A DNA stretch of 64,000 nt from Minisyncoccota bacterium (GCA_035627655.1 DASPLI010000001.1:323355-387354); one strand, 5' to 3'. Positions 13,544 to 58,982 are shown, counted from the stretch's first letter. Numbers and translations are program-made. Notes: generated from the letters alone by a model not told the origin.

Positions 13544-13599
13544 TCTTCTGTGTATAAAGACTGCCGTTGTGGGGCATTTGCGCCTATACTAGAAACATA

Positions 13600-14289
13600 A
13601 TGGCTCCTTCTCCGACCATTCCGACCTCATTCGTCCCGAAGCAGCCGGTGCAGACCGGTCAGCGCTACGTAAAGAATCAGGGCGTGAACCTCTTTCTCGT
13701 GTTCGCGAGTCTGTTGTTGGTCGTATCAGTACTTGCTGCAGGCGGTGTCTTTGCGTACCAGAACTTCCTCGAAGGGGTGCGCGATCGCAAGCAGGCGCAG
13801 GTAGACGAAGTGCGGCAGAGCATCAACTCGATGGTTGTCGAAGACTTCATCCGCACCCGCGATCGGTTTGTCGCGGCGGAGTCGCTCCTTGATAACCATG
13901 TCGCCGCCTCGCAGTTCTTCGATCTTCTTGAGTCACTGACGCTCCAGAGCGTTCGCTTCAACTCCCTCAACTTCACGCTCTCGGAGGACCGCTCCGCTAA
14001 GATCCAGATGGACGGTGTTGCGCGCAGCTTCAACGCGCTTGCGGCTGAGTCCTCGGCGTTCGCGTCTGAAAAGCGGATCAAGCGAGCCATCTTCTCCGAT
14101 ATCGCGGTTGATCCGCAGACGCGCAACGTGAGCTTCTCGCTTGATGCGGAGCTCTCGCCAGCGCTTCTCACCATTAGCGAAGCGTCGATCCCGAGCCTGC
14201 CAGTGGTGCCAAGCGCTCCGGCAACGACGAGTGCCGCAACGACAACGCCTGCAGCGACTACCACGCCGGTAAACCCACTTTCCCTATGA
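13600..14289 (+). CDS. pilN: PilN-like bitopic inner-membrane pilus assembly protein
   Basis: Single N-terminal TM (LFLVFASLLLVVSVLAAGGVFAY) then coiled-coil/periplasmic domain; position after pilM. Confidence 0.5.
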   Translation: MAPSPTIPTSFVPKQPVQTGQRYVKNQGVNLFLVFASLLLVVSVLAAGGVFAYQNFLEGVRDRKQAQVDEVRQSINSMVVEDFIRTRDRFVAAESLLDNHVAASQFFDLLESLTLQSVRFNSLNFTLSEDRSAKIQMDGVARSFNALAAESSAFASEKRIKRAIFSDIAVDPQTRNVSFSLDAELSPALLTISEASIPSLPVVPSAPATTSAATTTPAATTTPVNPLSL

Positions 14290-14840
14290 CCTCTCGCGTC
14301 CTTCCCGTCATTCTCATACTCGCCGCACTCGGCATCTTCTTCGGCTACGTAAACCCAACCTACAGCGGGGAAGTAAAGACTTTGCAGAGCGAGATCCGGA
14401 GCTATGACGCAGCGCTTCGTGCCGCAAGCGAGTTCCGCGAAAAAGAAGCGCAGCTGACGCTCGAGCGAAACGGTATTTCAAACGAGGGACTGCGTCGGGT
14501 CGAGGCCTTCCTCCCAGACGGCGTCGACAACGTGCAGCTGATCCTCGACCTTAACTCGCTTGCGTCGCGCTCGGGCATGGTGCTCTCCGATTTCGACATC
14601 GTCGATCGTGCAGAGCAGGAAGATTCGGAAGGCACTGCGCTCACGCTTGAATCAGATGACGCCACCGATTCAATCGATCTAACGGTCAACGCAACCGGCT
14701 CATACGAGAACTTCAAGAAGTTTCTGAAGGGCGCTGAATGGAGTCTTCGTCCGCTCGACCTGGTCTCCCTTGAGATTAAGGACTCGGCAACGGGCATTTA
14801 TACGTACACTATGACTTTCCGCCTCTACTGGCTCCGCTAA
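14286..14840 (+). CDS. pilO: PilO-like pilus assembly protein
   Basis: N-terminal TM, coiled-coil; synteny pilM-pilN-pilO; overlaps the pilN stop. Confidence 0.5.
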   Translation: MTSRVLPVILILAALGIFFGYVNPTYSGEVKTLQSEIRSYDAALRAASEFREKEAQLTLERNGISNEGLRRVEAFLPDGVDNVQLILDLNSLASRSGMVLSDFDIVDRAEQEDSEGTALTLESDDATDSIDLTVNATGSYENFKKFLKGAEWSLRPLDLVSLEIKDSATGIYTYTMTFRLYWLR

Positions 14841-29116: not shown

Positions 29117-29187
29117 AGCGGGGTGGAGGAGAGGTACCTCGGGAGGCTCATAACCTCCAGACGCCGGTTCGATTCCGGCCCCCGCAA
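29117..29187 (+). tRNA. Initiator tRNA-fMet (CAT) with an unpaired 1:72 position
   Basis: AGCGGGGTGGAGGAGAGGTACCTCGGGAGGCTCATAACCTCCAGACGCCGGTTCGATTCCGGCCCCCGCAA closely follows the bacterial tRNAfMet consensus, with A1xA72 mismatch and discriminator A. Lies inside the over-extended N-terminus of ORF 29123..30784. Confidence 0.8.
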
Positions 29188-29230
29188 CACGATTGTGATA
29201 GTGGAACTTAGACCAGTGCGCCTCAAAAGG

Positions 29231-30916: not shown

Positions 30917-30950
30917 GGTTCAGTACCGGTGCGGGCAACACGATTGTGAT
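30917..30950. repeat. Degenerate copy of the tRNA-fMet 3' segment plus 14 nt of its downstream flank
   Basis: 'aggttcagtaccggtgcgggcaacacgattgtgat' versus 29166..29199 'ggttcgattccggcccccgcaacacgattgtgat'. Confidence 0.4.
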
Positions 30951-34649: not shown

Positions 34650-34723
34650 GCTGGTGTAGCTCAGGTAGTTAGAGCATGGGACTCATAAACCCAAGGTCGG
34701 AGGTGCAAGTCCTCCCACCAGCA
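34650..34723 (+). tRNA. tRNA-Met (CAT; elongator or tRNA-Ile2 precursor)
   Basis: Acceptor GCTGGTG/CACCAGC, anticodon loop CTCATAA. Confidence 0.8.
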
Positions 34724-34768
34724 CTAAGGCTTGCCGGGGAGGGCAAAAACCGCTAGAGTCTCAAGGTT

Positions 34769-34842
34769 GCGGTCGTAGCTCAACTGGTTAGAGCACCCGC
34801 CTGTCACGCGGGAGGTTGCGGGTTCAAGTCCCGTCGACCGCG
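34769..34842 (+). tRNA. tRNA-Asp (GTC)
   Basis: Acceptor GCGGTCG/CGACCGC, anticodon loop CTGTCAC, T-loop TTCAAGT. Confidence 0.8.
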
Positions 34843-36465
34843 CATCAAGACGGAAGGACGCCGAAAGGCGTCTTTCGTCGTTTGGGTACGCGGTGTTTCT
34901 GGTTCAAGTGCCTCAAAAACGGGCGATGTAGGAATCTTCAGTTCTTGGATAGGAAGAAACCAAGGCATGGCTTGAATGCTGAATTCTTTGCCGATCATCG
35001 TGCAGTTCAAGTCAGCAAGGCCGAGAAGGATCTCGCGCCGTGTTTTTGCATCTCCGCGCATGAAGGCTGCCCGGGCGTAGGTAGCAAACTCGAAGGTCTT
35101 GCGGGTCAGCTCCAGCCACTCAGGGTTCTCCTCACGATGCTTGGCGATGCGCTCGCTTAGGCGACCCATCTCGCCCTTGATGCGGTTCTTCTGCTGCAGG
35201 AAGTCATTGTCGTCTATGACACCGCGGCTGTAGCCTTCAAGCAGGCGGTCCAGCTTGTCTTGGTTCGCGTCGTAGGCCTTCTGCAGGCTCTCTATCGCGC
35301 GCTTCTTATCCAGGTTCGCTTCGTCAGCTTTTTCCTCGATGATGTCGAGAGCCCAGTCCAAGAACTCGGGCGGAATCGTTAGGCGTTCAAGCTCCTTGTC
35401 GATAGCTTCCTCAATAAGGTCCACGTTCAAGGCACGAGTAACCGAACCCTTCTCCTTAGCCTTGCGGCAGTGCTCGCAGAAGTAGAGAACGTAGCGGCGT
35501 ATACTCCCGTCCTTGAGCTTCTTTTTTTGGTTCGTAGCTATGACACCGTGTCCACGCTCGCACTTGATGACCCCAGTGTAGGCATATTGGTTTATTTGTA
35601 CGCGAGGCTTGCCACGCTTTCCGAGAATGACTTGTGCGCGGTCAAACTCCTCGAGGGTGATCATGGGTACATGCTTGCCCTGATATAGCTCTCCACCGTA
35701 CTCGAACCATCCTGCATAGAAGATATTCGTGAAGATGCGGTAGATGCTGCTGCGGGTAAGGGGCTTGCCACCCGTGAGAGCGGTCTTTCGTGTGAGAAAG
35801 CCGCGTTCGTGTGTCAGCCAGTTAAGGATCTGGATGGGCGTAAGATTCCCGGTCAAGAGCTTGTTCCAAGCCTCCTTGATGTCATCAAAGCGTTCCGGGT
35901 CCTGCTCATTCGTATTCTCGCCACGGTTCCGGGTTTTCGTGTTGATGTAGCCATGAGGGCAGCTGCCAGGACGCCATCCTTTCTCAAGCTTGCTCTTGAG
36001 CCCGCGTTTTACGTTCGGCCCAAGGTCTCGGCTCGACTGATTTGCTATACCGAACTCAAGGAAGGATATGAGCGCGTTGTCTTCTGGAAGAAACTCACGC
36101 TCGAAGGTGCGGATGTGTTTGATTTCTCCGCGTTGTAGCATTCCAAGAATCATCCCTGCTTCGTCTGGGTTGCGAGCGAGACGGTCTAGCTTCCAGGTGA
36201 TGATGCCTTGAGCTTCACCCTTCTTGATGCGGCGGATCATATCGTTGAAGGCTTCGCGCTTAAAGGGAACAAATGCTGAGCGCGATTCGGTAATGATTTC
36301 TTTCATGCGGAGGCCGTACTGCTTGGCCATGCCTTCAAGCACCGTCGTCTGGTCCTCTATTGACTGAACCTGACGCTCCTTAGATTCAGAGGATTTGCGG
36401 GCATAGCCGAAGTAAACGATGTCTTGCTTTGATGTCATGTTGGTGAGTAAGTGAATAAAGTGCAC
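34804..36465 (-). CDS. Large serine recombinase (phage-integrase type); 3' end overlaps tRNA-Asp
   Basis: N-terminal resolvase domain 'VYFGYARKSSESKERQVQSIEDQ' (catalytic Ser) and 'ITWKLDRLARNPDEAG'; recombinase domain and coiled-coil/zinc-ribbon C-terminus. Confidence 0.85.
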   Translation of the reverse strand: MHFIHLLTNMTSKQDIVYFGYARKSSESKERQVQSIEDQTTVLEGMAKQYGLRMKEIITESRSAFVPFKREAFNDMIRRIKKGEAQGIITWKLDRLARNPDEAGMILGMLQRGEIKHIRTFEREFLPEDNALISFLEFGIANQSSRDLGPNVKRGLKSKLEKGWRPGSCPHGYINTKTRNRGENTNEQDPERFDDIKEAWNKLLTGNLTPIQILNWLTHERGFLTRKTALTGGKPLTRSSIYRIFTNIFYAGWFEYGGELYQGKHVPMITLEEFDRAQVILGKRGKPRVQINQYAYTGVIKCERGHGVIATNQKKKLKDGSIRRYVLYFCEHCRKAKEKGSVTRALNVDLIEEAIDKELERLTIPPEFLDWALDIIEEKADEANLDKKRAIESLQKAYDANQDKLDRLLEGYSRGVIDDNDFLQQKNRIKGEMGRLSERIAKHREENPEWLELTRKTFEFATYARAAFMRGDAKTRREILLGLADLNCTMIGKEFSIQAMPWFLPIQELKIPTSPVFEALEPETPRTQTTKDAFRRPSVLMRGRRDLNPQPPA

Positions 36466-36672
36466 TTATCCCTGGGTCGAGTTGTCGCGTAGCGAAGCGG
36501 AGCGTGCGCGTAGTCGCGCCAAATCTTCCTTGCAAAGAGGTTGGTAGACCAACTCCATAAGGCGATGGAACCGATGAGCGTGTTGCGTTGCCTGTTCGTC
36601 GTTGAGCGTGTGTCCGAAGCGTTGTTCGTAGATGCGCTGAAATGCACTAACGCGCTCCTCCGACAGCCGCAT
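36466..36672 (-). CDS. Small protein translationally coupled upstream of the recombinase (possible recombination directionality/regulatory factor)
   Basis: 68 aa; its stop abuts the recombinase ATG; no recognised motif. Confidence 0.3.
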   Translation of the reverse strand: MRLSEERVSAFQRIYEQRFGHTLNDEQATQHAHRFHRLMELVYQPLCKEDLARLRARSASLRDNSTQG

Positions 36673-37756
36673 GACGGGTGTGGCGGTGCGTCGTGGCGTG
36701 GCAGGTGGTCATAGTCATGGCCAAAGGGAGAAATGAATAAAGCCGCTACGTTTCCAGCGGCTCGTCGGGGCGGAATGGGGCGAAGTTGCGCGTTTCGGTG
36801 CCGATACCATAGCATGCAGGCTCGAAAAGCAAAAGAACGGCCCGAGCGTATCGACGCTTACCGTTCTTACGATCACGTTCTGTATTCGTTATCTGTTATT
36901 CGTATTCGATATGACTTGTTCTTAAGTATGTGTTTGTGTTCTGTTTTTTGCACACGTGTACTCAGCCCGCTAGGCGGGCTGAGGCTGCATAAGGATTTTC
37001 TTGCTGAGTTCTCCAGGGCTTAATACTTGGCCAAGAAAGATATGGCCGAGAAGGTATTGCCGCGCCCAACGCTCAGGTTCCGGAAAGCCATTACTTAGGC
37101 GGCTGTCCTTTGTCTCACGGAGGTGGGTTGTTTCCAACCCATGTATCCCGCTCGCTTTGGCAATGTGTCAGCACGGTGAGCCGGTTATGCTTGACTGCGA
37201 GGGGCTCTTTTTGCGCAGATGGCCTGAGTTAGCCTGCCATCTGAACCTACGTCCTTATGCACACTAGGGCTGGCGGACCTGTAGGGGGAACCGTGAGTCC
37301 AGCTGATGTGCCGTTCGGCGAACCGAACTAGGGATACCTTACCTGAGTCCCCCCATGCAGCGTTCGAGATCGCCGTGCGGATATGCGTGAGAAGTAAGTT
37401 CGTTCCGCTTAGGCGAGGCCTAGCCTCTAAGTGAAAGAGACACATTGTCCCCCTCTACTAGCGCCGGTAGGGGTAGTCTACATTTTTGACCGACCTCTCC
37501 CGCAGGTTTTGTCCTGAGAGAACTTCAGGCCTATACTTATCCTGTTCGACAACTGAATAGATGGCCCGTAAGGGCCAGGACCTAACCCGCCGGTCTCGGC
37601 CGTCGGTATGGTTCGAAAAGTCTCGCAAAAGCACAGCAGGCCCGTCATGCGGTTGTCTTTTGCGAGCCATGTCCGAAAGGGCATGTCGGCTTTGCCGAGA
37701 CCCGTGGCGGGCCTTCTGTGCGCTCGTCATGGGAATTACTCGCTCACGAGAATCCT

Positions 37757-38023
37757 ATGGCCACGACACTTCGCAAGTCACTTCTAGTTGGTGCTGCTCT
37801 CATTTTCTTACTCGGTGCTGTTTCGACCTGGGCCTACATGAGTGCGCCGGTGTTCGTTCAATTTGGCGAGGCACACTTTTTAGCTGGCGGGCAATGGTAT
37901 ACGCGCACTCAGGGCGAGGGCTATGCCGACTATGCCGCAACCAAGCAAAGTCTCTGGGAAGCCGTGGCTGGCGATCCGAACCCCTTGCACTGGATCCCTA
38001 TTAGCTTCGATTCGGTCGAGTAG
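37757..38023 (+). CDS. Small secreted/TM protein
   Basis: 'MATTLRKSLLVGAALIFLLGAVSTWAYM' signal/anchor. Confidence 0.3.
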   Translation: MATTLRKSLLVGAALIFLLGAVSTWAYMSAPVFVQFGEAHFLAGGQWYTRTQGEGYADYAATKQSLWEAVAGDPNPLHWIPISFDSVE

Positions 38024-38026
38024 CGT

Positions 38027-38521
38027 ATGGGACTGCTCATTGTTATCGGTCTCGTAGTGGCCGTGTTCGCGTGGATCGCGTTCGTAAAGACTGAACCGGC
38101 GCGCGCGGCGGCACGGGCGCGTCGGGATGCAGGACAGCAGCGCCAAGACGAGCTCCTTTCTCAAGCGGAGTATTTGATAGCTAGAGGGAAGGAACGGGCA
38201 ATGGAAGCATACGAGCAGCTGGCGCGGGATATACGAGCCATGCCCAAGTACGCCGTATGGAGGGAGGACGTTCTGCTCAAGCACGGCAGACGCTGCTCGA
38301 TATGCGGCTCCACTGAAAACATCGAGGTAGACCACAGGCACTCCCTGTACTCTCTCGTGCGGATCTATGGCATCACCAACCTTGACGAAGCGTATGCTTG
38401 CGACGCTCTCTGGGAGGTGGGGAATGGCAACCCGCTGTGCAGGCCCTGCCACGACAAGACGGCGCCAAGCGCATACCGCAGGAAGAAAGCCGCGCAAGGC
38501 GCGGCTGTTCCTCAAGCATGA
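38027..38521 (+). CDS. Membrane-anchored HNH endonuclease domain protein
   Basis: N-terminal TM, then 'CSICGSTENIEVDHRHSL...NGNPLCRPCHDKT' HNH/zinc-finger motif. Confidence 0.55.
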   Translation: MGLLIVIGLVVAVFAWIAFVKTEPARAAARARRDAGQQRQDELLSQAEYLIARGKERAMEAYEQLARDIRAMPKYAVWREDVLLKHGRRCSICGSTENIEVDHRHSLYSLVRIYGITNLDEAYACDALWEVGNGNPLCRPCHDKTAPSAYRRKKAAQGAAVPQA

Positions 38522-38712
38522 CGAGGGAGTCTGCAGGTCGGCAGGAGCACAGCTTCCTGTGCTGCGGCTAGCGCGGCCTCGCGCGTCTCGCCGCTGCCGA
38601 GAACGGCACCGCGCTCGTCGCGCACCTGGTAGCCGAACACCTCGCAGGTATCCTGGAAATCCTCGTCCTCGTCGCTCCAGGAGTAGCGGGTAAGCGGTTC
38701 AATGTAGAGCAT
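38512..38712 (-). CDS. HicB-like (UPF0150) small protein, possible antitoxin
   Basis: 'MLYIEPLTRYSWSDEDEDFQDTCEVFGYQVRDERGAVLGSGETREAALAAAQEAV' aligns with the HicB N-terminal domain pattern (M.Y......y.v.fPdlpGc...GeT.eEAl.na.EA). The ORF-track N-terminal extension is probably spurious. Confidence 0.4.
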   Translation of the reverse strand: MLYIEPLTRYSWSDEDEDFQDTCEVFGYQVRDERGAVLGSGETREAALAAAQEAVLLPTCRLPRHA

Positions 38713-38926
38713 GCGTTGGTAGTTATGGATAACGCATGCCGCGAGTCGTCCACCCCGGCAGGGGTGGTAGTGCGGGGTGGTTCCCTTACCTCCCCTAGAT
38801 AGGGGAATGGGTGTCAGGTAGAGGATTCCGCGGGCAGTCGCGCGCGTTCGGGGGCTTTCCACAGGTTATGCAGCAAAGCGCCGCAGAGGGCTGCACAACG
38901 CCGCACTTGGCTGCTATACTCAGGGA

Positions 38927-39994
38927 ATGCGAACGCCGTATACCACCATCGACCTGTTTGCTGGCATCGGCGGAATCCGAAAGGGCTTCGAGGCTGCCGG
39001 CTTTTCTACTCTCTATGCAGCTGACAATGACGCTTACTGCAAAGCGACTTACGACCTGAACTTCGCCAAGAAAGGAGCGCCGCTCGCTCTCCAGGATGTG
39101 GCTGCCATAGACCGTGCATCTCTCCCTGACTTCGATGCGCTTCTTGCCGGGTTTCCGTGCCAATCGTTTTCTGTTGCCGGCAATAAAAAGGGATTCGAGG
39201 ATACCGGACGCGGAGACTTGTTCTTCGAGCTTATGAAGATCGTCGAAGAGCGCGAGGAAGAGAAAAAGCCGCGCGTGGTATTCCTCGAAAACGTAAAGAA
39301 CCTCCTTACGCACGACCACGGAAGGACCTTCGTAATCATCAACGAGAGGCTGGCTAATGCCGGATACCATGTCCGCTTCAGCCCGCTCAGTAGCGCAGAC
39401 TACGGAGACGTTCCGCAGGCGCGCGAGCGGGTCTACATCGTGGGCTTCAAAGACAAGGCCGCGCATGACGCATTCGAGTTTCCTGAGAAGCTGCCGCGCA
39501 AGAAAACCATCCTTGACGTACTTGAAGACGGGGTGGATGAGAAGTACTACTACCGCGAAGGGTGGCTGTATGACCGCATCAAGAACCAGGGGATGAAGCC
39601 TGGCCGCGTATACCAGTGGCGCCGCGTGCACCTTCGGGAAATCAAGAGCGGGATCTGCTGCACCCTCACGGCCAACATGGGCATGGGCGGGCACAACGTG
39701 CCGCTCGTGTGCGATAGCAAGGGGCTCCGCAGGCTTACGCCTCGAGAATGCCTGCGCTTGCAGGGCTTCCCTGACACCTTCAAGATTCCAGAGACCATTC
39801 CGGAGTCCCGGCTATACAAGCAGGTCGGCAATTCGGTGACCGTCAGCGTCATCGAGCGCATCGCGAAGAACATAAAGAAGGCTCTCGATGCTGCAGAGAA
39901 AGCGGCAGAAGTAGAAACTTATGGCAGACGTATTCACAAAGGAAAAGCGGAGCGAGATCATGTCGCGCATAAGGTCGCGGCACACGTCGCCTGA
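38927..39994 (+). CDS. dcm: DNA (cytosine-5)-methyltransferase
   Basis: Motif I 'DLFAGIGG', motif IV 'GFPCQSFSVAGN', motif VI 'ENVKNL', C-terminal TRD. Confidence 0.9.
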   Translation: MRTPYTTIDLFAGIGGIRKGFEAAGFSTLYAADNDAYCKATYDLNFAKKGAPLALQDVAAIDRASLPDFDALLAGFPCQSFSVAGNKKGFEDTGRGDLFFELMKIVEEREEEKKPRVVFLENVKNLLTHDHGRTFVIINERLANAGYHVRFSPLSSADYGDVPQARERVYIVGFKDKAAHDAFEFPEKLPRKKTILDVLEDGVDEKYYYREGWLYDRIKNQGMKPGRVYQWRRVHLREIKSGICCTLTANMGMGGHNVPLVCDSKGLRRLTPRECLRLQGFPDTFKIPETIPESRLYKQVGNSVTVSVIERIAKNIKKALDAAEKAAEVETYGRRIHKGKAERDHVAHKVAAHVA

Positions 39995-40328
39995 GCTGCT
40001 GGTATACCGCTACTTGCGCAGGGAAGGAGTCTACTTCCAGAAGCACTACAAGAAAGCGCCAGGCTCGCCGGACATAGCGCTACCGAAAAAGAAGATTGCC
40101 GTATTCATTGACGGCGACTTCTGGCATGGGTGGAAATTCGCTGAGCGCAGAGAGAAGCTGCCCGAAATCTACTGGCGGGAGAAGATTGAGAAGAACATTA
40201 AGAGGGACAAGGCGAGGAGGGCGAAGCTCAAGCGGATGGGATGGAAAGTTCTTCGCGTGTGGGAGCACGACTTGAAGAAGCGTCCAGAGGCTACTCTCGA
40301 GAAGATCCGGCTGTTCCTAGTCTCGTAG
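39921..40328 (+). CDS. vsr: Very-short-patch-repair endonuclease
   Basis: 'TKEKRSEIMSRIRSRHTSPE', 'DIALPKKKIAVFIDGDFWHG', 'RDKARRAKLKRMGWKVLRVWEHD'. Overlaps the dcm 3' end, as classic dcm-vsr pairs do. Confidence 0.85.
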   Translation: MADVFTKEKRSEIMSRIRSRHTSPELLVYRYLRREGVYFQKHYKKAPGSPDIALPKKKIAVFIDGDFWHGWKFAERREKLPEIYWREKIEKNIKRDKARRAKLKRMGWKVLRVWEHDLKKRPEATLEKIRLFLVS

Positions 40329-40395
40329 CGGCTGTCCACAGGAGTATTGACAAAGCGTACATAGGGTATACCCTGCATAAATACGACCTATCCTT

Positions 40396-40638
40396 ATGCA
40401 GGATTCACCTAAAAGGGGAAAAAAGAGCGAAAAGAGGGAGCGCTTTGAGCGTTTGGCCGAGTACCGCACGAACGAGGTGTTGCGGAAGTTGAAGACTCTG
40501 GGGAACTGCGGGAACCGCAGCGCCTACGAGTACACTGAAGACGAGGTGGGCAAGATATTCTCCGAGATCGAGCGGCAGGTAAAGGAGGCGCGCGCCAAAT
40601 TTACCTTCCCTAAGCGCTCGGGCAAGTTCACGCTCTAA
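40396..40638 (+). CDS. Small basic protein, first gene of the GHKL-ATPase operon
   Basis: 80 aa, Lys/Arg/Glu-rich; 16 nt upstream of the GHKL gene. Confidence 0.3.
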   Translation: MQDSPKRGKKSEKRERFERLAEYRTNEVLRKLKTLGNCGNRSAYEYTEDEVGKIFSEIERQVKEARAKFTFPKRSGKFTL

Positions 40639-40654
40639 AATTAAATACCCCGAC

Positions 40655-42529
40655 ATGAAAAAAGATGGCCTCGAATGGCACTTCCCAGACCTGCAGCACG
40701 CCGACTCCGAAGGCCTTAACGATCCATTGCTCCAGTATTTCGGGGGCAACCACAACCGCTACATAGCCCGCGAGGTCATACAGAACTCGATAGACGCCCG
40801 CAAGGACGATACGCAGCCAGTAGTGGTGAAGTTCACGCGCCTCGAGCTGCCTACTGCCGAGGTGCCGGGAGTCGCTGAGCTGAAGAAGCATTTGGAAGTC
40901 TGCTTGGAGCAGGCTAGGAGCGAGCAGAACGAAAAGGCGGAACGCTACTACGAGGACGCGGTGCGCGCTGCAGGCGAGCCGAAGACCATCGTGCTCCGCG
41001 CGTCGGACTTCAATACCTCCGGCCTTACGGGAGAGGACAAGGACAAGCGGGGCAAGTGGCACCGCCTCGTGCGCGCCGTAGGCGAGAACCAAATGTCAGG
41101 CGTGGGCGGAGGCTCATACGGCATCGGTAAGGGAGCGCCCTTCGTCGCTTCGCGCATGCGCACCGTCTACTACTCCACGAAGAATGAGGACGGCGACGTT
41201 ATCTTCCAGGGCAAGGCGCGGCTCATGAGCCACGAATTGAAAGGCAAGGAGTACCGAGGCGTAGGCTCTTTCGGCGTCGAGGGCTATAAGTCGGTAAGGG
41301 ATCCGAAGGCAATCCCGCCTGCTTTCTTGAGGCAGGAGCAGGGCACGGACATCAGCATCATAGGCTACATGCCTAACCTTGCATGGGCCGACGAGCTTGC
41401 GGCATCGGTGCTCGACAACTTCTGGATGGCGATCTACTCGGGCACTCTTGAAGTCGTCATAGGGAACAGCAGCGGCATAGGCGAGCTTCGCATCGACCGC
41501 TCGACTCTCCGCGAGCTCTTGGAGAAGCACTGCAAGGACAGCGGATTTATCTACTACAAGTGCGTCATTGACTCGAGCCGCACGTTCGAGAAGCAGCTCC
41601 CGCTTCTGGGGCTTTGCCGCTTGCACGTGCGCATCGAAGAGAAGTTTCCGCGCCATATCGCCGTCATGCGCAGGCCGAAGATGGTGGTCGACACCATGCG
41701 CTTCCCGAAGACGCTTCAGCAGCCGTTCGCAGGCGTCTTTATCTGCGACGATCCTGAAGGAAACAAGATACTCCGCGGCATGGAGCCGCCGGAGCACGAC
41801 AAGTGGGACCCGGATCTCGACCCCGTTAACGGCAGGGCTGCGCTCAGCGAGATACGCGAGTGGATGAAGCACAACCTTCTCGAGCTCGCCGAAGAAGAAA
41901 GCGGCGATCCTGAAGAGATTCCAGAGCTCGAGAAGTTCCTGCCGTATGACGAGGATTCGGAGCGCGCGTCGGAATCGAGCAAGAGCCGGACTCAGGCGAC
42001 GGGTACTGCCGGCCGCGATGAGAGCGCTATGGAAGTAGGCGCAGAGCGCGATGAGGAGGCGCGCGAGATCGAAGCTTTCGTGCACAAGCCGTCCTCGGTA
42101 AGGGATAACGACAAGGGCGGCATGGCCCCTGATTTCGACGACGACGGCAAGGGCGGAAGCGACGGGGGCAGCGGCGGAACTGGCGACGAATCCGGCGGCA
42201 AGGGAGCAGAGCGCATCAACACTTCGCAGGCGCGTTTCCGCATCATCTATACGGGCAAGAAGAAGGATCGTGCCGAGTACTGCCTCGTGATTACGCCGAT
42301 GATGGACCAGGAGGGAGGCGTGAACATCGTCGCTCTCGGAGAAGACTCGACCGTCTACCCGGTTTCCGTAGCCGAGGCCGAGGAGTGGGGAAAGAAGGCA
42401 AAGACGTACAAGCACAGTGGCTCGTTCATCGCAGGCCTGAAGCTCAAGAAGAACAAGCCTGTCCGCATCCGCATCGAAACTAAGTCCGCTTCGCGCTACG
42501 CGCTAGGCATCGAGAACCATGAAGGCTAA
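40655..42529 (+). CDS. MORC/MutL-like GHKL (Bergerat-fold) ATPase with a long acidic disordered linker and a C-terminal domain
   Basis: N-box 'IAREVIQNSIDA', G1-like 'SDFNTSGLTG', G2 'GGGSYGIGKGAPF'; acidic Gly/Asp/Ser-rich segment around residues 420-520. Confidence 0.6.
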   Translation: MKKDGLEWHFPDLQHADSEGLNDPLLQYFGGNHNRYIAREVIQNSIDARKDDTQPVVVKFTRLELPTAEVPGVAELKKHLEVCLEQARSEQNEKAERYYEDAVRAAGEPKTIVLRASDFNTSGLTGEDKDKRGKWHRLVRAVGENQMSGVGGGSYGIGKGAPFVASRMRTVYYSTKNEDGDVIFQGKARLMSHELKGKEYRGVGSFGVEGYKSVRDPKAIPPAFLRQEQGTDISIIGYMPNLAWADELAASVLDNFWMAIYSGTLEVVIGNSSGIGELRIDRSTLRELLEKHCKDSGFIYYKCVIDSSRTFEKQLPLLGLCRLHVRIEEKFPRHIAVMRRPKMVVDTMRFPKTLQQPFAGVFICDDPEGNKILRGMEPPEHDKWDPDLDPVNGRAALSEIREWMKHNLLELAEEESGDPEEIPELEKFLPYDEDSERASESSKSRTQATGTAGRDESAMEVGAERDEEAREIEAFVHKPSSVRDNDKGGMAPDFDDDGKGGSDGGSGGTGDESGGKGAERINTSQARFRIIYTGKKKDRAEYCLVITPMMDQEGGVNIVALGEDSTVYPVSVAEAEEWGKKAKTYKHSGSFIAGLKLKKNKPVRIRIETKSASRYALGIENHEG

Positions 42530-43343
42530 AAACATATCGTATCCATATCCGGTTCTCGGGAACGAGGACGACGTAAAGGGAACTTTCGACGTCTCCTTCA
42601 AGCACGCGCTTCGCCGGGAGGAAGTAGCGCTCATGGTCGGCTTCAAGCTCAAGAACAAGTCGCTTGAAAAGCTAGTAAAGGAGAAGAAGGCAGCATTCAC
42701 CGTCGAGGTGGAGTGTCCTGGCACCTTCTTCCGAAAGAGCTTCTCGACCTTCGAGCACGACGCCCGGTTTGTGATCGGCTCAGGTCTGGTGCGGGAGCAC
42801 GTGTCGGCAGCCTTCTATGTCCGCGCCGTCGAGCCGCTGCCTAAGTACAAGATCGACGGAAGCCACCCTGACTACGAGGGGTTCCCGTTCGACATAGGAG
42901 CGGGAGACGTGCTCGCGCTCGGAGGACACACCTCGTTCATCGCGGAGAAGGACTTCGACCCGATGCGCCCTGCGGTCTCGTCCTTGATAGCTATCAAGCC
43001 CGGCACGCATGCGGTCGGACCGATGCAGATCGACTACAGCCAGGACAAGATTCTCATTAAGCTCTCCGAGCGCGACTACAAGAACTACGGAATCGTAAAG
43101 GGCAGGGTGGGCATTGCAGGCGTGCTGCACGCATCCATCGTCCTTCCCGTACTGGCAGAAGCCATCAAGCTCGTACACGAGAAGGACCATGAGACGCAGG
43201 GAACGCACTGGCACAAGCGGCTTGAAATCATCCTGCGCCAGCAGGAGCTGCCGGCCGACGACGGGCTGCTCGCTGCGCAGAAGCTCTTGCGCAGCCCGCT
43301 CGAGCGGTGCTTATCAGGCCTCGCGGAGGATAGCGACGATTAA
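42519..43343 (+). CDS. Hypothetical protein, translationally coupled to the GHKL ATPase
   Basis: ATG overlaps the GHKL stop (ATGAAGGCTAA); no recognised motif. Confidence 0.4.
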   Translation: MKAKNISYPYPVLGNEDDVKGTFDVSFKHALRREEVALMVGFKLKNKSLEKLVKEKKAAFTVEVECPGTFFRKSFSTFEHDARFVIGSGLVREHVSAAFYVRAVEPLPKYKIDGSHPDYEGFPFDIGAGDVLALGGHTSFIAEKDFDPMRPAVSSLIAIKPGTHAVGPMQIDYSQDKILIKLSERDYKNYGIVKGRVGIAGVLHASIVLPVLAEAIKLVHEKDHETQGTHWHKRLEIILRQQELPADDGLLAAQKLLRSPLERCLSGLAEDSDD

Positions 43344-43344
43344 T

Positions 43345-44136
43345 ATGCCAAACCAAAATATCTTCAAAGGAATGTTCGTGTCAGAGCTCCGCGACAAGGT
43401 GCGCAACGGGGAATCGCTTTGCGACTACTTCAAGGCGGAGCTCGACTATCCTGCAGACGCGGTGATGGAGTCTCCTATAAAGGTAGTGCCCGAAAGCCTC
43501 GAACTGAAGTACAAAGGTCCGGGCGAGACGGTCAGCAACGATCTTGAGAATGCCATTGCGCTTTACGAAGCGTTTCCGGACTTAAACGAAACCCAAGCGT
43601 CGGACATCCGCCTGTGGACCTACCTGACGCACGTGTCCCTTCGCGACTACGTGCGCAAGCGCTGGCCTCTGGCAGGAACCTGCGAGCAGGCTATGAAGGA
43701 CAAGAAGACGAAGGAAGCCGCAATCAGCTACGTCCTAAGCCACTGGTTTGCATCGGGAGGCAACGACCGTTCGCTCCGCCGCAATGCTGCTGCCAGGCTT
43801 TGGTGGGCTGTGCGTCTGACCCGGGCGCCGTGGGAGCGCGACGAATTCTTCAAGGATCTTGGAGGTAAGGATGCGGACCCCTACCGATTCACGCGCACCC
43901 TGTTCTCGACGCAGGACGTCTATCAGCAGGTGCTTGAGCGAGGCCTGGGTCGCGACAACCGCATACTCATAACCGTTCTCGAGTTCATAGACGGACAGGA
44001 AGGCATCAAGCGCGAACAGATCCGCGACTTTATGAAGGAGCTAAACCTTGCGCTCTCTGTCCGCAACTTCTCGCTCCTCAGCAGGGAGGAAATGAAAGCG
44101 GCGATCTTCGAGCTCGGCAATGCAGCAGTTAAGTAG
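43345..44136 (+). CDS. Hypothetical protein of the same operon
   Basis: Starts 1 nt after the previous stop; conserved-looking 'WTYLTHVSLRDYVRKRW', 'LSHWFASGG'. Confidence 0.4.
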   Translation: MPNQNIFKGMFVSELRDKVRNGESLCDYFKAELDYPADAVMESPIKVVPESLELKYKGPGETVSNDLENAIALYEAFPDLNETQASDIRLWTYLTHVSLRDYVRKRWPLAGTCEQAMKDKKTKEAAISYVLSHWFASGGNDRSLRRNAAARLWWAVRLTRAPWERDEFFKDLGGKDADPYRFTRTLFSTQDVYQQVLERGLGRDNRILITVLEFIDGQEGIKREQIRDFMKELNLALSVRNFSLLSREEMKAAIFELGNAAVK

Positions 44137-44141
44137 CGATC

Positions 44142-44519
44142 ATGGAAGCAAGGCTGCCCGATCCTAAGGACTCGCTATACATTCGCACCTTGCTCTGGGC
44201 TTTTGAGCGTAAGAATACAGGGTTCACTATGGACGAGCTGAAAGCCGCGATGAATGTAGACGGCAGCGAATGGGAATGGCTTAAGTGGATGTTTACGGAA
44301 GGCTTGAACGGTGAAGCGCCTCTCATCCACTACAGGCATATGCCGAGCCAGAAATACACGTACTTCCTTACAGCATCAGGAACAGCTGCAACAATCGACT
44401 ACCTCGAGCTTAAGGAGGCGCAGCGAAGCGGAAGCCGAGCAACGCTCATCGCATTCATAGCCATCGCCATCTCCATTATAGTAGGAGCAGCCCAGATATA
44501 CTTCGACGCCTTTTACTAG
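44142..44519 (+). CDS. Small protein with a C-terminal TM anchor, last gene of the operon
   Basis: 'ATLIAFIAIAISIIVGAAQIYF' TM; 5-nt spacing from the previous gene. Confidence 0.35.
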   Translation: MEARLPDPKDSLYIRTLLWAFERKNTGFTMDELKAAMNVDGSEWEWLKWMFTEGLNGEAPLIHYRHMPSQKYTYFLTASGTAATIDYLELKEAQRSGSRATLIAFIAIAISIIVGAAQIYFDAFY

Positions 44520-44855
44520 AAGCCGCCAAGAGAACCCGTCCGCAGCACGGAGATCAGCAGGTAGCCTTAGAAGGCAATCGTCAGCTCCTCTGCAAGAGCG
44601 AGCCCACACAGAATACAGGTTGCATCCATTCCATTCGGGAGGGCCGCATCGCATACACAGACTTGTTCGTAGGTCATGCGACAAGACTAGCTGAGTCCCT
44701 ATTTATGCTTCGAGCTACCTAGAAAGGACTCTGTGGCTCAACTGCGGGATGTGAATGTGGCCTTGATGCTGCCGGATTTTAGTTCCAACAGCCTTCACGA
44801 TGTTGCGCAAGATAACAAAGCAAGAAGCCGCCTCTTGGCAGCTTCTTGCTTTGGG

Positions 44856-45146
44856 TTAAAGATACTCCTTTTCGTAGCGGCGCATGGCGTTCTCGATGAG
44901 CTTCAGGCCTTGGCCGCGCCTGGTAGTGATATATAGCCCGTCCTGCCCCTTCTCTGCGAGCCCGTCATCTATGAGCTTCTTGAGCTTGAGCGTTAGTGTG
45001 CGGGTCGAGATGCCTTCGAGCGAACGTTCTAGGTCGCAAAAGCGGCTTACTCCATGGTTGAGCTGGTACAGGATAAGCATCGTCCATTTATCCGAAAGCA
45101 GCTGGGCTACTTTGGTGATGGGGCAGGTCACTTCGGCTTTCTTCAT
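44856..45146 (-). CDS. HxlR-family (DUF24) winged-helix transcriptional regulator
   Basis: 'CPITKVAQLLSDKWTMLILYQL...RFCDLERSLEGISTRTLTLKLKKLIDDGL'. Confidence 0.75.
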   Translation of the reverse strand: MKKAEVTCPITKVAQLLSDKWTMLILYQLNHGVSRFCDLERSLEGISTRTLTLKLKKLIDDGLAEKGQDGLYITTRRGQGLKLIENAMRRYEKEYL

Positions 45147-45229
45147 GATTCCTGCACTATAGCAAGTGTATAGATACTTTACAATGTAAAGTAATACCGC
45201 TATACTCTCAGAACATAACGCATTTCTAT

Positions 45230-45841
45230 ATGAACACGCTCGCTAACGCAGAATCTATAAAGAAGACAGAAGAGGCTCTCAAGGCAAATGGCTTCGAACC
45301 GATACACGTAAAATCGAAGGAAGCGGCGCTCGAGAAGGTGAAGGAGCTTATCCCTGCGGGCGCATCGGTCATGAACGGCGCATCCAAGACGCTTCAAGAG
45401 ATCGGCCTCATCGAATACCTCAAGAGCGGGGAACATCCTTGGAACAACCTGCAGGACCCCATCCTTGCAGAGCCGGACCAGGCAAGGCAAGCCCAGATGC
45501 GCCGTGAAGCCGTAGTCTCTGATTTCTATCTCGGCAGCGTTCACGCTCTCACCGAGACAGGAGAGCTGACCGTCGCTTCGAATACGGGCAGCCAGCTTCC
45601 GCACCTCGTGTTCACGTCCCCGAACCTAGTCCTTGTAGTGGGAGCTAACAAGATAGTTCCGACGCTCAAGGATGCGTTCGTTCGACTCGACAAGCAGGTA
45701 CTGCCTCTTGAGAATGAGCGGATCCAAGGCCTATACGGGATTGATACCACATGGGCGAAGACCGTCATCCTCCACAAGGAAAACACCATGCTCGGACGCA
45801 AGGTCTACGTAGTCATCGTAGACGAGCAGCTTGGGTTCTAG
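45230..45841 (+). CDS. LUD-domain protein (LutC/YkgG-like)
   Basis: 'AASTGSV' variant 'ASNTGSQL...LVLVVGANKIVPTLKDA...RIQGLYGID'. Confidence 0.5.
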   Translation: MNTLANAESIKKTEEALKANGFEPIHVKSKEAALEKVKELIPAGASVMNGASKTLQEIGLIEYLKSGEHPWNNLQDPILAEPDQARQAQMRREAVVSDFYLGSVHALTETGELTVASNTGSQLPHLVFTSPNLVLVVGANKIVPTLKDAFVRLDKQVLPLENERIQGLYGIDTTWAKTVILHKENTMLGRKVYVVIVDEQLGF

Positions 45842-45850
45842 AGGTCGCAT

Positions 45851-45950
45851 CGACTAGTGAGGGAATATGGATGTGCCGCCCTGCGGCCAATGCCTCCCTG
45901 ATTCTGGTTCTAGTTATGTCGACGAGGTCGCGCAAAGCAAGAAGGCCGCC
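45851..45950. repeat. Intergenic ~100-nt element, copy 1 (about 70% identical to 46431..46545)
   Basis: Shared blocks 'ggg.atatggat.tgc', 'gcctccc.gattctggttc.a', 'gt.cag.agttcgcg', and a terminal hairpin/terminator-like 'aaggccgcctatgggcggtcttct'. Confidence 0.4.
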
Positions 45951-46381
45951 TATGGGCGGTCTTCTGCGTTAGCGTGATGGCTTCGTAGTGCAAGTGCGCG
46001 CACAAGACGCGGAGTCACGAATATGCCGAGAAGGAACAATCCCCACACACGCCCGGCAAACAGGTTATAGTCGGCGATAAGTTCACTCCAGGGTGCACCA
46101 TCGATGTAATGGCCAAACCCAAACTCGAATGCGACAGTCATGACTACCCAGAGTGCACCGATGAGCCACAGGACTTTCATTGGTACGTCGACCACCTTCT
46201 TGTGCAGCATCGCATATGCAAGCGCAACGTATGCTCCAATTGCGATGATCGTGCTTATCTGATGCGCAGCGAGGTCGCCAACATATGAAGCGTAGAAGCT
46301 CTCGCGGACTATACCGTTCGCAATAGCGATTGGGATGAAAAGAACCCAAGTAAGGATGGCTCGCAGAAGTAGTGTGTTCAT
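45950..46381 (-). CDS. Polytopic membrane protein
   Basis: Four or five TM helices. Confidence 0.4.
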   Translation of the reverse strand: MNTLLLRAILTWVLFIPIAIANGIVRESFYASYVGDLAAHQISTIIAIGAYVALAYAMLHKKVVDVPMKVLWLIGALWVVMTVAFEFGFGHYIDGAPWSELIADYNLFAGRVWGLFLLGIFVTPRLVRALALRSHHANAEDRP

Positions 46382-46430
46382 ACTCTATGCTCCTTTCTAC
46401 CCAATTCTACGCCGCTAGGAAGTTAAGGTT

Positions 46431-46545
46431 CGCTTAAGATGGGGGTATGGATATGCTCATTTTCAGCTAACGCCTCCCGTATTCTGGTTCCAACCGTGTT
46501 CAGTAGTTCGCGTACCGAAACGCAAAGAGGCTAAAGGCCTCTTCC
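46431..46545. repeat. Intergenic ~100-nt element, copy 2
   Basis: See copy 1; ends in hairpin 'gaggctaaaggcctc'. Confidence 0.4.
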
Positions 46546-46557
46546 GCCAGGTTATTA

Positions 46558-46929
46558 TTGACAATAATGGCCACCGTCCCTCAGTTCTTCAAAGGGTTTC
46601 CTGAGTCCAGAAAATTATTTCGCGTCGTTCGTGACTATATTGAGTCTTTGGGTGGGGTGAAAATAGAAGTGATGAGGACTCAGATTTCTTTCGGTACTCG
46701 AAGAAAATTTGCATGGGCATGGCTGCCTCAGAAATGGGCCACGGGTCGCCCAAAGAAAAGTCTTGTTGTAAGTTTCGTATCAACCGAACGTTTGCAGGAC
46801 AGGAGAATTGCTGAGGCTACCAAGGTTGGGGAACGAAGGTGGACACACCACGTCGTTCTCGAAGAAAGCGCAGATTTTGACGCAAGGGTAAAGAGTTGGA
46901 TACGTGATGCCTATAAAAGAGCGCTGTAG
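46558..46929 (+). CDS. Hypothetical protein
   Basis: ORF with plausible codon usage; no motif recognised. Confidence 0.3.
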   Translation: MTIMATVPQFFKGFPESRKLFRVVRDYIESLGGVKIEVMRTQISFGTRRKFAWAWLPQKWATGRPKKSLVVSFVSTERLQDRRIAEATKVGERRWTHHVVLEESADFDARVKSWIRDAYKRAL

Positions 46930-57728: not shown

Positions 57729-57804
57729 GCCGATGTAGCTCAGTTGGTAGAGCACGTCCATGGTAAGGACGAGGTCACCGGTTCAATCCCGGTCATCGGC
57801 TCCA
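57729..57804 (+). tRNA. tRNA-Thr (GGT)
   Basis: Acceptor GCCGATG/CATCGGC, anticodon loop ATGGTAA, T-loop TTCAATC, encoded CCA. Confidence 0.85.
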
Positions 57805-57834
57805 AATGATTCGAGAGGGTGCTATGGTTACTTC

Positions 57835-58869
57835 ATGAACACTTCTCGAGGATTCTCACTTCTTATCGTCGTGCTCGTCGTAGCAGGGCTTGGTCTCCTG
57901 CTCCTTGGAAACCACGGTTTCAAGCCCATTCTTCAAGAGGCAGTCACTGCGCTCCCAAGCGAGCAGACTATTTTCACGTTCGAGGCGGAGCTTACGCCAA
58001 GTACCGAGATGATGTTCCGCTCTCCTCAGCCGACCAGTAGCGCCAACCCGCCCCCTGCGGAGATCGTCTCGCGCTCGACCGGCGTCGTCCTCAAGACCCT
58101 TCCAGAAGCGAGGGGCTTTGGCGGTGACATCTACAGTGGAAGCAGTCGACCAACCGTATCGCCGAAAGGGAACTACCTGGCCTACCTTTCAGGAAATGCA
58201 GTTATGATCGCTGATACGAAGGAGCATCGCGTGGCGATCACCGATCCTTCGTATGCGCAGTATCCGGAGATAAACACACGCTTGCATACCTGGAGTCCTG
58301 ACGAACGCAAGCTTCTCTTCACGCTCTCCGTTACCACTGGCTGTGGAATGACGGCCGATCCGTGCCCGGAGGTAGAAGTTCCGGAAGGATTGCCGGAAGG
58401 ATTCCTTCTTGCTGACCTTGATGCGGGCACAGTGCAACACCTAGCGAGCCTCAGCACCAAAACGCACTACTACTTTGAAGGCTGGCTCGATAACGACACG
58501 CTCGTGTTCGAACGCGACAACGTCGTATATGAATATACGCTTGGGGATCTGGCCATCACTCCTTCCTCGCGCTTCGGGACTCCGTTTGCAAAGATCAACT
58601 TCTTCTCGTTCATTGGTACAGCGGTCGATGGCACCTACCTCTATGTTCGCGGACAGGGACAGAATTCTGGCACGCCGCTCGAGCTCGTTGCTCGCAAGGA
58701 CGGCCGCGATCAGGTGATTGTGTCCTACCCATGGGCGAAGGTGCAGAGCAGGGATATCTCGATCTCTGACGATGGCCGCTTCGTGTCTTGGACCTATCAG
58801 GATACTGGGGTCACCCGGACGTACGATCTTCTTGAGCAAAAAGAGGTGAGTGAGGGCTTGGGCACGTAA
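57835..58869 (+). CDS. Membrane-anchored beta-propeller (TolB/WD40-like) protein
   Basis: N-terminal TM; repeated 'SP.G..LAY', 'WSPDERKLLF' beta-propeller-like repeats. Confidence 0.45.
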   Translation: MNTSRGFSLLIVVLVVAGLGLLLLGNHGFKPILQEAVTALPSEQTIFTFEAELTPSTEMMFRSPQPTSSANPPPAEIVSRSTGVVLKTLPEARGFGGDIYSGSSRPTVSPKGNYLAYLSGNAVMIADTKEHRVAITDPSYAQYPEINTRLHTWSPDERKLLFTLSVTTGCGMTADPCPEVEVPEGLPEGFLLADLDAGTVQHLASLSTKTHYYFEGWLDNDTLVFERDNVVYEYTLGDLAITPSSRFGTPFAKINFFSFIGTAVDGTYLYVRGQGQNSGTPLELVARKDGRDQVIVSYPWAKVQSRDISISDDGRFVSWTYQDTGVTRTYDLLEQKEVSEGLGT

Positions 58870-58906
58870 TTGTTTAAGCCATCGAAATACGCTATATAAG
58901 ACGTAC

Positions 58907-58982
58907 GCCACCGTAGCTCAGTTGGTAGAGCATTGCATTCGTAACGCAAAGGTCGCCGGTTCAATCCCGGCCGGTGGCTCCA
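58907..58982 (+). tRNA. tRNA-Thr (CGT)
   Basis: Acceptor GCCACCG/CGGTGGC, anticodon loop TTCGTAA, encoded CCA. Confidence 0.85.

Follow-up and report, generated by a model that had tools for sequence, protein, structure and literature searches.

A putative defence island inserted by a large serine recombinase at the 3' end of tRNA-Asp in Candidatus Paceibacterota

The DNA analysed here is a 64,000-nt stretch (hereafter the window; all coordinates are positions in it unless a locus number is given) from Candidatus Paceibacterota (Patescibacteria). It is part of a 742.7-kb contig (ENA ERZ27252484, k141_498263). Within the window, positions 34845-44809 probably represent one integrative defence island of a Patescibacteria-wide family, inserted by a large serine recombinase (LSR) at the extreme 3' end of tRNA-Asp(GTC). 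A preliminary description had proposed an element with an LSR and a methylation/defence cargo at this tRNA, and this view is strengthened by the same dcm-PDC-M33 architecture at two other loci (L207 and L208; locus numbers are our own). Overall, the observation is real, and the evidence supports a serine-integrase variant with its own attachment (att) site logic that is common to a large family in Patescibacteria.

Target tRNA and Genomic Context

Two tRNA genes, tRNA-Met (34650-34724) and the predicted integration target tRNA-Asp(GTC) (34769-34843), follow each other on the plus strand as described earlier; ARAGORN and Rfam called both, with an Rfam score of 72.9 bits for tRNA-Asp. For comparison, 80 loci from related Patescibacteria genomes, all of other species, were fetched using the AOX-like gene as the anchor. 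The conserved backbone in these loci starts with ligA-gatCA, a 193-aa gene, tRNA-Met, AOX, tRNA-Met, and tRNA-Asp, and continues after a short variable gap with two tRNA-Thr genes and prfB-ftsE-ftsX-pyrG. The gap between tRNA-Asp and tRNA-Thr is 22.9 kb in the window and 1.6-5.6 kb in the relatives. Genes located in 36.5-56 kb of the window have homologs at the equivalent locus in none of the 80 relatives. By this comparison, a synteny check of the kind that had been suggested, the putative island is absent from the equivalent locus at the level of different species.

Composition was another check suggested, and it agrees with an insertion. The GC content at third codon positions is 0.72-0.78 for vsr through PDC-M33C, compared with ~0.63 for backbone genes. 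The tetranucleotide distance is elevated across 37-46 kb and backbone-like in 47-57 kb, such that both measures deviate over the cargo.

The Large Serine Recombinase and Its Family

The LSR gene (34804-36465, minus strand) encodes an intact integrase of 553 aa that matches Pfam Resolvase (PF00239; 1.1e-13), Pfam Recombinase (PF07508; 1.5e-7), and a PHROG integrase family (2.4e-61). Y21, R23, and the catalytic S25 are invariant in an alignment of 29 LSR sequences, and the window protein has all invariant residues. The loss of the catalytic serine, named earlier as a sign of inactivation, is therefore not seen, and the protein is predicted to have a resolvase-type catalytic domain with its nucleophilic Ser. 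The conserved Cys302 and Cys330 are present as well; PF13408 (Zn_ribbon_recom) was matched in most homologs and not in the window protein. In comparisons with NCBIfam equivalogs, the best match was CcrB (68.6 bits, 4.1e-19; cut-off 900), followed by XisF (63.3 bits; cut-off 375), and the protein is below both cut-offs. The preliminary description was right about a 553-aa LSR gene on the opposite strand that overlaps the tRNA-Asp 3' end and gave the overlap as 39 nt; by our measurement, the open reading frame (ORF) runs over the last 40 nt of tRNA-Asp, and its TGA stop codon is the complement of the anticodon loop.

The small ORF noted upstream of the recombinase is also present. It encodes 68 aa (36466-36672, minus strand; identified by translation) and ends where the LSR begins. 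Homologs were found in at least 18 related LSR loci (E down to 1e-12), and no match was found in Pfam or PHROGs. This partner protein is a candidate directionality factor or regulator.

The LSR belongs to a large family, with 4,796 relatives at E <= 1e-20 among 8,000 candidates scored. The closest homologs, which have 57-65% identity and derive from other metagenomes, adjoin tRNA-Asp in the same manner (L086, L087, L088, L089, and L090). Among these, L086, L087, L088, and L090 have the identical 40-nt overlap with the TGA stop codon in the anticodon-loop complement, while the LSR in L089 overlaps a tRNA-Asp interrupted by a group I intron. We had considered L089, L010, and L011 as a free attP carrying only the 3' half of the tRNA and rejected this for L089 in favor of the intron-containing tRNA. 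At 40-65% identity, the 3' end of the LSR gene abuts a tRNA on the opposite strand in at least 56 of the 85 loci, and these tRNAs represent 14 anticodons. Several of the remaining family loci, in which no tRNA was called, have intron-containing tRNAs or truncated contigs. More distant relatives (30-33% identity) are located at the ends of IMG/VR viral contigs and abut tRNA-Gly or tRNA-Thr. A search with the single LSR protein found no viral relatives, and a profile search found only relatives with 23-38% identity.

Group I introns in the anticodon loops of LSR-targeted tRNAs were observed in L089 (11655-11846), L207 (~1190-1455), and L157 (7431-7692), and all were missed by ARAGORN. These cases agree with the group I introns recently reported in tRNA-Asp and tRNA-Asn of Patescibacteria (PMC13011429). 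As for serine integrases, a survey in 2020 stated that their use of tRNA genes had not been reported previously and predicted it for 14 of 297 (PMC7192596). No later account of tRNA-targeting serine integrases was found in the literature searched.

Predicted Attachment Site and Crossover at the tRNA End

The putative B-type half-site is the T-loop-to-3'-end segment of tRNA-Asp, GTTCAAGTCCCGTCGACCGCGCA (34822-34844, plus strand). This GTTC...GCGCA segment is 23 nt long in every genome examined. Its end, GCGCA (34840-34844, plus strand), is the predicted attL core common to attR, based on cross-element conservation and the breakpoints between filled and empty sites. Beyond it is the P' end of the element (34845-34890, plus strand), which, as read from the sequence, consists of a hairpin (34856-34873) and a T-rich run. 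Both lie within the C-terminal coding sequence of the LSR and are terminator-like on the tRNA strand; the P' end is homologous in L086, L087, and L090 and in elements at other tRNAs.

When the junctions were aligned on the tRNA 3' end, conservation across elements started 1-3 nt past the tRNA, which corresponds to the C-terminal codons of the LSR. At most the last few tRNA bases are therefore element-derived, and for this reason no long direct repeat is expected. Consistent with this, a search for long direct copies of the tRNA-Asp 3' end found none in the window, as had been the impression by eye, and none within 10 kb in 51 family loci. The crossover probably occurred within or beside GCGCA, the sole sequence common to both junctions. 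The earlier characterization as the "classic geometry" of tRNA 3'-end integration does not apply in this respect, because the site is not of the duplicated-3'-end type found in tyrosine-integrase islands. Searches for terminal inverted or direct repeats of the attL region revealed nothing above background, and no second copy of the P' hairpin was found.

The Far Junction

The other end of the island is probably marked by a ~100-nt intergenic repeat. The preliminary description reported two copies; the repeat is real, and alignment and nhmmer revealed three copies (A, 44725-44871; B, 45844-45985; and C, 46425-46577) that are too diverged for blastn. An Rfam search on these repeats found nothing. 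Each copy contains a conserved stretch of ~55 nt, a GTTC...GCGCA segment resembling the tRNA-Asp T-loop-to-3'-end segment, and a terminator hairpin. The tRNA-mimic segment is 28 nt long in all 10 repeat copies from five genomes, versus 23 nt in the tRNA. Similarly, when a profile of the repeat was compared with 30 tRNA-Asp genes, it matched 13 of them (E down to 1.5e-5). These matches begin at position 53, extend over the native terminators, and contain a 5-nt gap; other tRNAs are matched at the hairpin only. A hallmark of large serine integrases is that the distance between the center and the outer motif is about 5 bp greater in attP-type than in attB-type half-sites (PMC11722253). Because the constant +5 difference matches this rule, the mimic is read as a P-type arm, and the putative half-sites have the offset typical of serine integrases.

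Comparisons of filled and empty sites among other genomes argue strongly for this reading. The flank after the tRNA-Asp GCGCA in L003 corresponds to the flank after the 28-nt arm in L015 (L015b), with 49 of 55 positions identical from the first base. Likewise, the flank after tRNA-Asp in L004 corresponds to that of the second copy in L003 (L003b), with 38 of 41 identical. These identities indicate that the repeat is attR (P-O-B') and that the breakpoint is at GCGCA. A spacing scan of 46 loci found three matches at +5 (L105 at tRNA-Ser, L134 and L144 at tRNA-His; implied elements of 7-9 kb). Each of the other spacings gave zero to one match, and on the opposite strand the +5 spacing gave none. 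In L208, the corresponding pair at tRNA-Leu is 29 nt versus 24 nt. Furthermore, the conserved stretch 5' of the P arm, which is the element terminus, is common to His- and Ser-type elements. The constant +5 and the orthology of the flanks speak against two other origins of the repeat, namely, a tRNA 3' end displaced by crossover in the T-loop and a remnant of the LSR 3' end.

In the window, copy A (plus strand; supported by alignment, nhmmer, and a motif profile) is the putative attR region. It contains the 28-nt P-type half-site GTTCCAACAGCCTTCACGATGTTGCGCA (44782-44809, plus strand), followed by a B' flank hairpin (44816-44853) that is shared with the end of the HxlR gene and doubles as its terminator. 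The terminator after this arm resembles those located 3' of tRNA-Asp in empty-site relatives. Both window junctions (attL, 34840-34844; attR, 44782-44809) are assigned by homology and position. The evidence supports a right boundary at 44805-44809 and thus a predicted island of 9,965 bp. Of the two right boundaries considered earlier, ~44.5 kb was close, and ~46.5 kb marks where two older units without an LSR end. The predicted circle junction is ...CACGATGTTGCGCA joined to TCAAGACGGAAGGACGCC..., and the predicted empty site is ...GTCGACCGCGCA joined to AGATAACAAAGCAAGAAGCC....

In L207, the attR motif is directly followed by a 16-mer that matches the tRNA-Asp T-loop-to-acceptor segment perfectly in inverted orientation (GTCGACGGGACTTGAA; 11747-11762); other loci totaling 742 kb contain no comparable copy. 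This 16-mer may represent a B'-type half-site or the trace of an inversion.

The two units beyond copy A are LSR-less and appear to be older. The first (44810-45934) contains an HxlR gene (44856-45146, minus strand) and a LUD-domain gene (45230-45841, plus strand), both named earlier and matched in Pfam, and ends in copy B with a P-type arm at 45907-45934. The second (45935-46514) contains a gene for a 143-aa membrane protein (45950-46381, minus strand) and ends in copy C with a P-type arm at 46487-46514. Short integrase-less units are stacked 3' of tRNA-Asp in several genomes (window 44810-46514, L003 1-1290, and L015 7314-9547). They carry one or two small genes, often for membrane proteins, and are bounded by the common P-type terminus. 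These units could be remnants or non-autonomous cassettes mobilized in trans.

If 34.8-46.5 kb, or even the DNA up to ~57 kb, were a single element, the ~100-nt repeats would be internal features such as small RNA genes. The tetranucleotide deviation that remains elevated to ~46-47 kb, the absence of anything from 36.5-56 kb at this locus in relatives, and a Logan contig of the strain that spans exactly tRNA-Asp to tRNA-Thr could be explained in this way. However, Logan contigs break at every tRNA, and the composition of 47-57 kb is backbone-like. Moreover, the repeats are found 3' of tRNA-Asp in L003 and L015 without an LSR at that tRNA, their flanks are orthologous to empty-site tRNA-Asp flanks, and housekeeping genes resume ~440 nt past the last cargo gene in L208. 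A single larger element is thus unlikely, and we favor an island that ends at copy A.

LOOT RNA and the Control Region

Between the integrase module and the cargo is a divergent control region with no supported gene (36673-37578), in which an 86-aa ORF called by the pipeline (37185-37445) had no matches. The 36.7-37.6 kb spacer was also considered as a decayed replication gene and rejected, as it has no similarity to core genes of other elements. A promoter scan found a promoter-like site (37509-37537, plus strand) upstream of a LOOT RNA (Rfam RF03000; 37579-37698, plus strand), which scored 53.1 bits against a gathering score of 46.4. The 1.1-kb stretch described earlier as ORF-free indeed has no supported gene but is not empty, as it holds this RNA and the promoter-like site.

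A covariance model that we built from four LOOT copies matched 28 times in the LSR loci (1.13 Mb) and not once in control loci (1.42 Mb). The Rfam model confirmed LOOT in 11 of 11 loci (68-96 bits). For the structure, 91% of cells are paired, and compensatory changes were found in 32 of 34 pairs. The window copy is thus above the Rfam threshold with a conserved predicted structure, and these scans indicate that LOOT is specific to LSR loci of this family. With the exceptions of L094 and L146, LOOT is located in the divergent region between an integrase-side operon and the cargo. The former encodes a 400-580-aa protein, a ~740-aa Toprim primase-like protein, a DUF5659 protein, a member of the small-ORF family, and the LSR. 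The cargo is on the other strand, and its first ATG is 33-96 nt past LOOT in most loci. This position directly upstream of variable restriction-modification (R-M)/defence cargo fits a cis-acting leader better than a free-standing small RNA (sRNA), and LOOT may be a structured leader that heads the cargo transcription unit. LOOT was reportedly derived from metagenomes (Weinberg and colleagues in 2017) and filed as an sRNA of unknown function. In L152 (2701-3023), two tRNA genes were observed directly beside LOOT, inside presumed element DNA.

Cargo Genes

The first ORF shortly after LOOT is a called gene for an 88-aa signal/transmembrane (TM) protein (37757-38023, plus strand). It is followed by a gene for a 164-aa TM-anchored putative HNH endonuclease (38027-38521, plus strand); the HNH assignment proposed earlier has a PHROGs match (1.1e-7) and is below the Pfam cut-off. 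Next is a called gene for a 66-aa protein (38512-38712, minus strand), previously labeled "HicB-like" over 38512-38862. This label finds no support in profile searches, with no HicB or other match in Pfam (E up to 5), PADLOC, NCBIfam, or PHROGs. The dcm-vsr pair, in comparison, is clearly matched, as had been described: dcm (38927-39994, plus strand) by Pfam DNA_methylase (2.4e-83) and vsr (39960-40328, plus strand) by Pfam Vsr (1.6e-25), with NCBIfam TIGR00675 and TIGR00632, respectively, above their cut-offs.

The five-gene GHKL-ATPase operon noted earlier consists of co-directional genes on the plus strand (40396-44519), and three of these match PADLOC PDC-M33 components. It starts with an 80-aa ORF (40396-40638), followed by PDC-M33A (40655-42529; 6e-128), PDC-M33B (42519-43343; 2.5e-55), PDC-M33C/DUF6339 (43378-44136; 1e-33), and a gene for a 125-aa TM protein (44142-44519). 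By these profile matches, components A, B, and C are adjacent and co-directional. By its MORC/SMCHD1-like fold, PDC-M33A is a MORC-like GHKL ATPase, with a Bergerat fold, a transducer domain, an N-box (E40, N44), and G-boxes. In the literature searched, neither PDC-M33 nor DUF6339 was named in any paper. We consider PDC-M33 a candidate defence system.

The cargo at other LSR loci differs: eight carry a type III Mod/Res system, L090 a type I R-M system, and L089 an AAA_15 ATPase. The set of dcm, the 80-aa ORF, and PDC-M33ABC recurs in L207, where the tRNA-Asp contains an intron and the A subunit is 83% identical, and in L208, where the tRNA is tRNA-Leu and the identity is 68%. Because like cargo follows LOOT at various tRNAs and the backbone resumes so soon after the cargo in L208, the cargo is regarded as part of the element. 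An apparent LSR-less variant, L210, was rejected because it has the same DNA as L208 and lacks nothing but the gene call. In L208, genes for a ThsB-like TIR protein and an 8xMP protein (13522-14482) were observed after the PDC-M33 operon, which suggests that further defence modules are stacked in a common cargo slot.

Replication or transfer genes, which most family members carry, are lacking in the window element, and no trace of replication genes was found in the 0.9-kb spacer. It is a minimal member and may be immobile or helper-dependent. This lack of replication genes, together with the distant LSR relatives at IMG/VR viral contig ends and the lack of excision evidence, could point to a decayed prophage or a vertically inherited locus in which the recombinase is a domesticated invertase or resolvase and no longer integrative. 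This is very unlikely: the LSR retains its full length and every invariant residue, and apparently complete elements in L105, L134, L144, and L208 (7-13 kb) have a matching architecture with a P-type terminus. Furthermore, searches of the ORFs in 34.8-44.5 kb against PHROGs, Pfam, and NCBIfam found no virion structural or packaging match. It is highly improbable that only a core of LSR, small ORF, and LOOT is mobile and that the defence genes form a chromosomal island beside an integration hot spot; defence genes do generally cluster near such hot spots and several short contigs end at or near LOOT (L088, L098, L119, L131, and L146), but R-M/defence genes follow LOOT closely at many tRNAs and in many hosts, the dcm-PDC-M33 cargo does so at tRNA-Leu in L208 and also in L207, and a P-type arm lies beyond the cargo.

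Proposed Mechanism

For an integrative island bounded by tRNA-Asp and copy A, we propose that the LSR would bind the T-loop-to-3'-end segment of the tRNA as the B half-site and the 28-nt mimic, with its 5 extra bp, as the P half-site, and strand exchange would occur within GCGCA. The tRNA would remain intact and gain a new terminator embedded in the last codons of the LSR, which would explain why the LSR ORF runs 40 nt into the tRNA. A promoter divergent from the integrase module may drive the LOOT leader and then the cargo. Among the cargo products, Dcm would mark self DNA and Vsr would repair T:G damage from deamination of 5-methylcytosine, while PDC-M33ABC, as a MORC-like ATPase system, and the HNH protein may act against unmarked invaders. 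As for the short units at 44.8-46.5 kb, they may be remnants or non-autonomous relatives of earlier insertions at tRNA-Asp.

Several points weigh against this interpretation. Defence by PDC-M33, a leader role for LOOT, and a regulatory role for the 68-aa ORF are predictions, and replication and transfer genes are absent from the window element. Copy A is the most diverged P arm, with only 5 of its last 8 nt matching the tRNA, and nothing but its position ties it to the LSR unit. Inverted symmetry between the P and P' ends could not be detected. A same-species empty site or excised circle was not found; exact-protein look-ups returned only island-bearing contigs of this strain. Finally, the tandem P-type sites imply repeated insertion beside an occupied site, which canonical serine integrases, being limited to attP x attB, should not permit.

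A broader reading of these patterns is possible, and we put it forward tentatively, with somewhat less than even confidence in the whole. A large and previously unrecognized clade of Patescibacteria serine integrases may have diversified onto many tRNA 3' ends, with a tRNA-mimic P arm at a +5 offset and a LOOT leader driving a swappable R-M/defence slot. Repeated insertions, including integrase-less units perhaps mobilized in trans, would then build cassette arrays at the tRNA. If true, this would be a serine-recombinase counterpart of integron- or SCC-like accretion (SCC, staphylococcal cassette chromosome).

Other Variable Sites in the Neighborhood

The 3' end of a second tRNA-Met in the window (29117-29188), together with the next 11 nt (29166-29199), recurs at 30917-30950 with 79% identity and equal length. 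These repeats flank a 1.75-kb low-GC segment with a single 522-aa ORF, and nowhere else in the window is the tetranucleotide deviation as strong. No integrase is present. Because this tRNA-Met is directly beside AOX in L006 and L007, 29.19-33.87 kb is a separate variable island. On the other side, a distant LSR relative (31% identity) abuts tRNA-Thr(CGT) in L008 and L015, while tRNA-Thr(CGT) in the window (58907-58982; region 57729-58982) is unoccupied. The neighborhood therefore has two alternative LSR landing sites.

Implications

If our interpretation is correct, the island is a clear and testable example, for which attP and attB can be predicted, of tRNA genes serving as targets of serine integrases, a habit considered characteristic of tyrosine integrases, and suggests that the half-site rule of serine integrases can be satisfied by mimicking a tRNA end. 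Because tRNA 3' ends are conserved, these LSRs are candidate orthogonal integration tools with natural landing pads. The orphan LOOT RNA can now be assigned to a host group, Patescibacteria, and to a precise genetic context, so that its function can be put to the test. Ultra-small Patescibacteria mostly lack CRISPR, and the candidate defence system PDC-M33 appears in these bacteria as mobile cargo beside R-M systems.

Comparison with Known Systems

The window LSR resembles the integrases of phiC31, Bxb1, A118/LI, and SPbeta in its Resolvase and Recombinase domains, its catalytic Ser, and the location of its gene at the element edge. The predicted att sites are also similar, being short, with no long target duplication and a P half-site that is 5 bp longer (PMC11722253). 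Unlike these integrases, the window clade targets tRNA 3' ends (14 anticodons), the LSR ORF ends inside the tRNA, and the C-terminal coding sequence of the window LSR may double as a tRNA terminator.

With tyrosine-integrase islands and prophages at tRNAs (P4-like; Islander/TIGER class), the island shares a tRNA 3' landing site, an integrase gene beside the tRNA, a tRNA that apparently stays functional, and defence cargo. The enzyme family is different, however, and in place of a tRNA duplication of 15-50 nt, there is a 5-nt core and a diverged mimic with the +5 offset.

In SCCmec and other SCC elements, the CcrAB or CcrC LSRs insert at the 3' end of rlmH/orfX, and composite arrays with recombinase-less pseudo-SCC units accumulate. 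The window locus is comparable in having an LSR at the 3' end of a conserved housekeeping gene and recombinase-less units at one site. It differs in that the target is an RNA gene, the host belongs to Patescibacteria, LOOT is present, and the cargo is for putative defence instead of resistance. Furthermore, the window LSR is not a Ccr, as its score is far below the CcrB cut-off.

For LOOT RF03000, the window copy passes the curated model and shows strong covariation. What is new here is the genomic context, namely, the divergent control region of tRNA-targeting Patescibacteria LSR elements. For PADLOC PDC-M33, all three components match near full length and in identical order, and the accompanying Dcm and Vsr are canonical; the MORC/SMCHD1-like fold of the A subunit and the travel of this candidate system on LSR elements are new.

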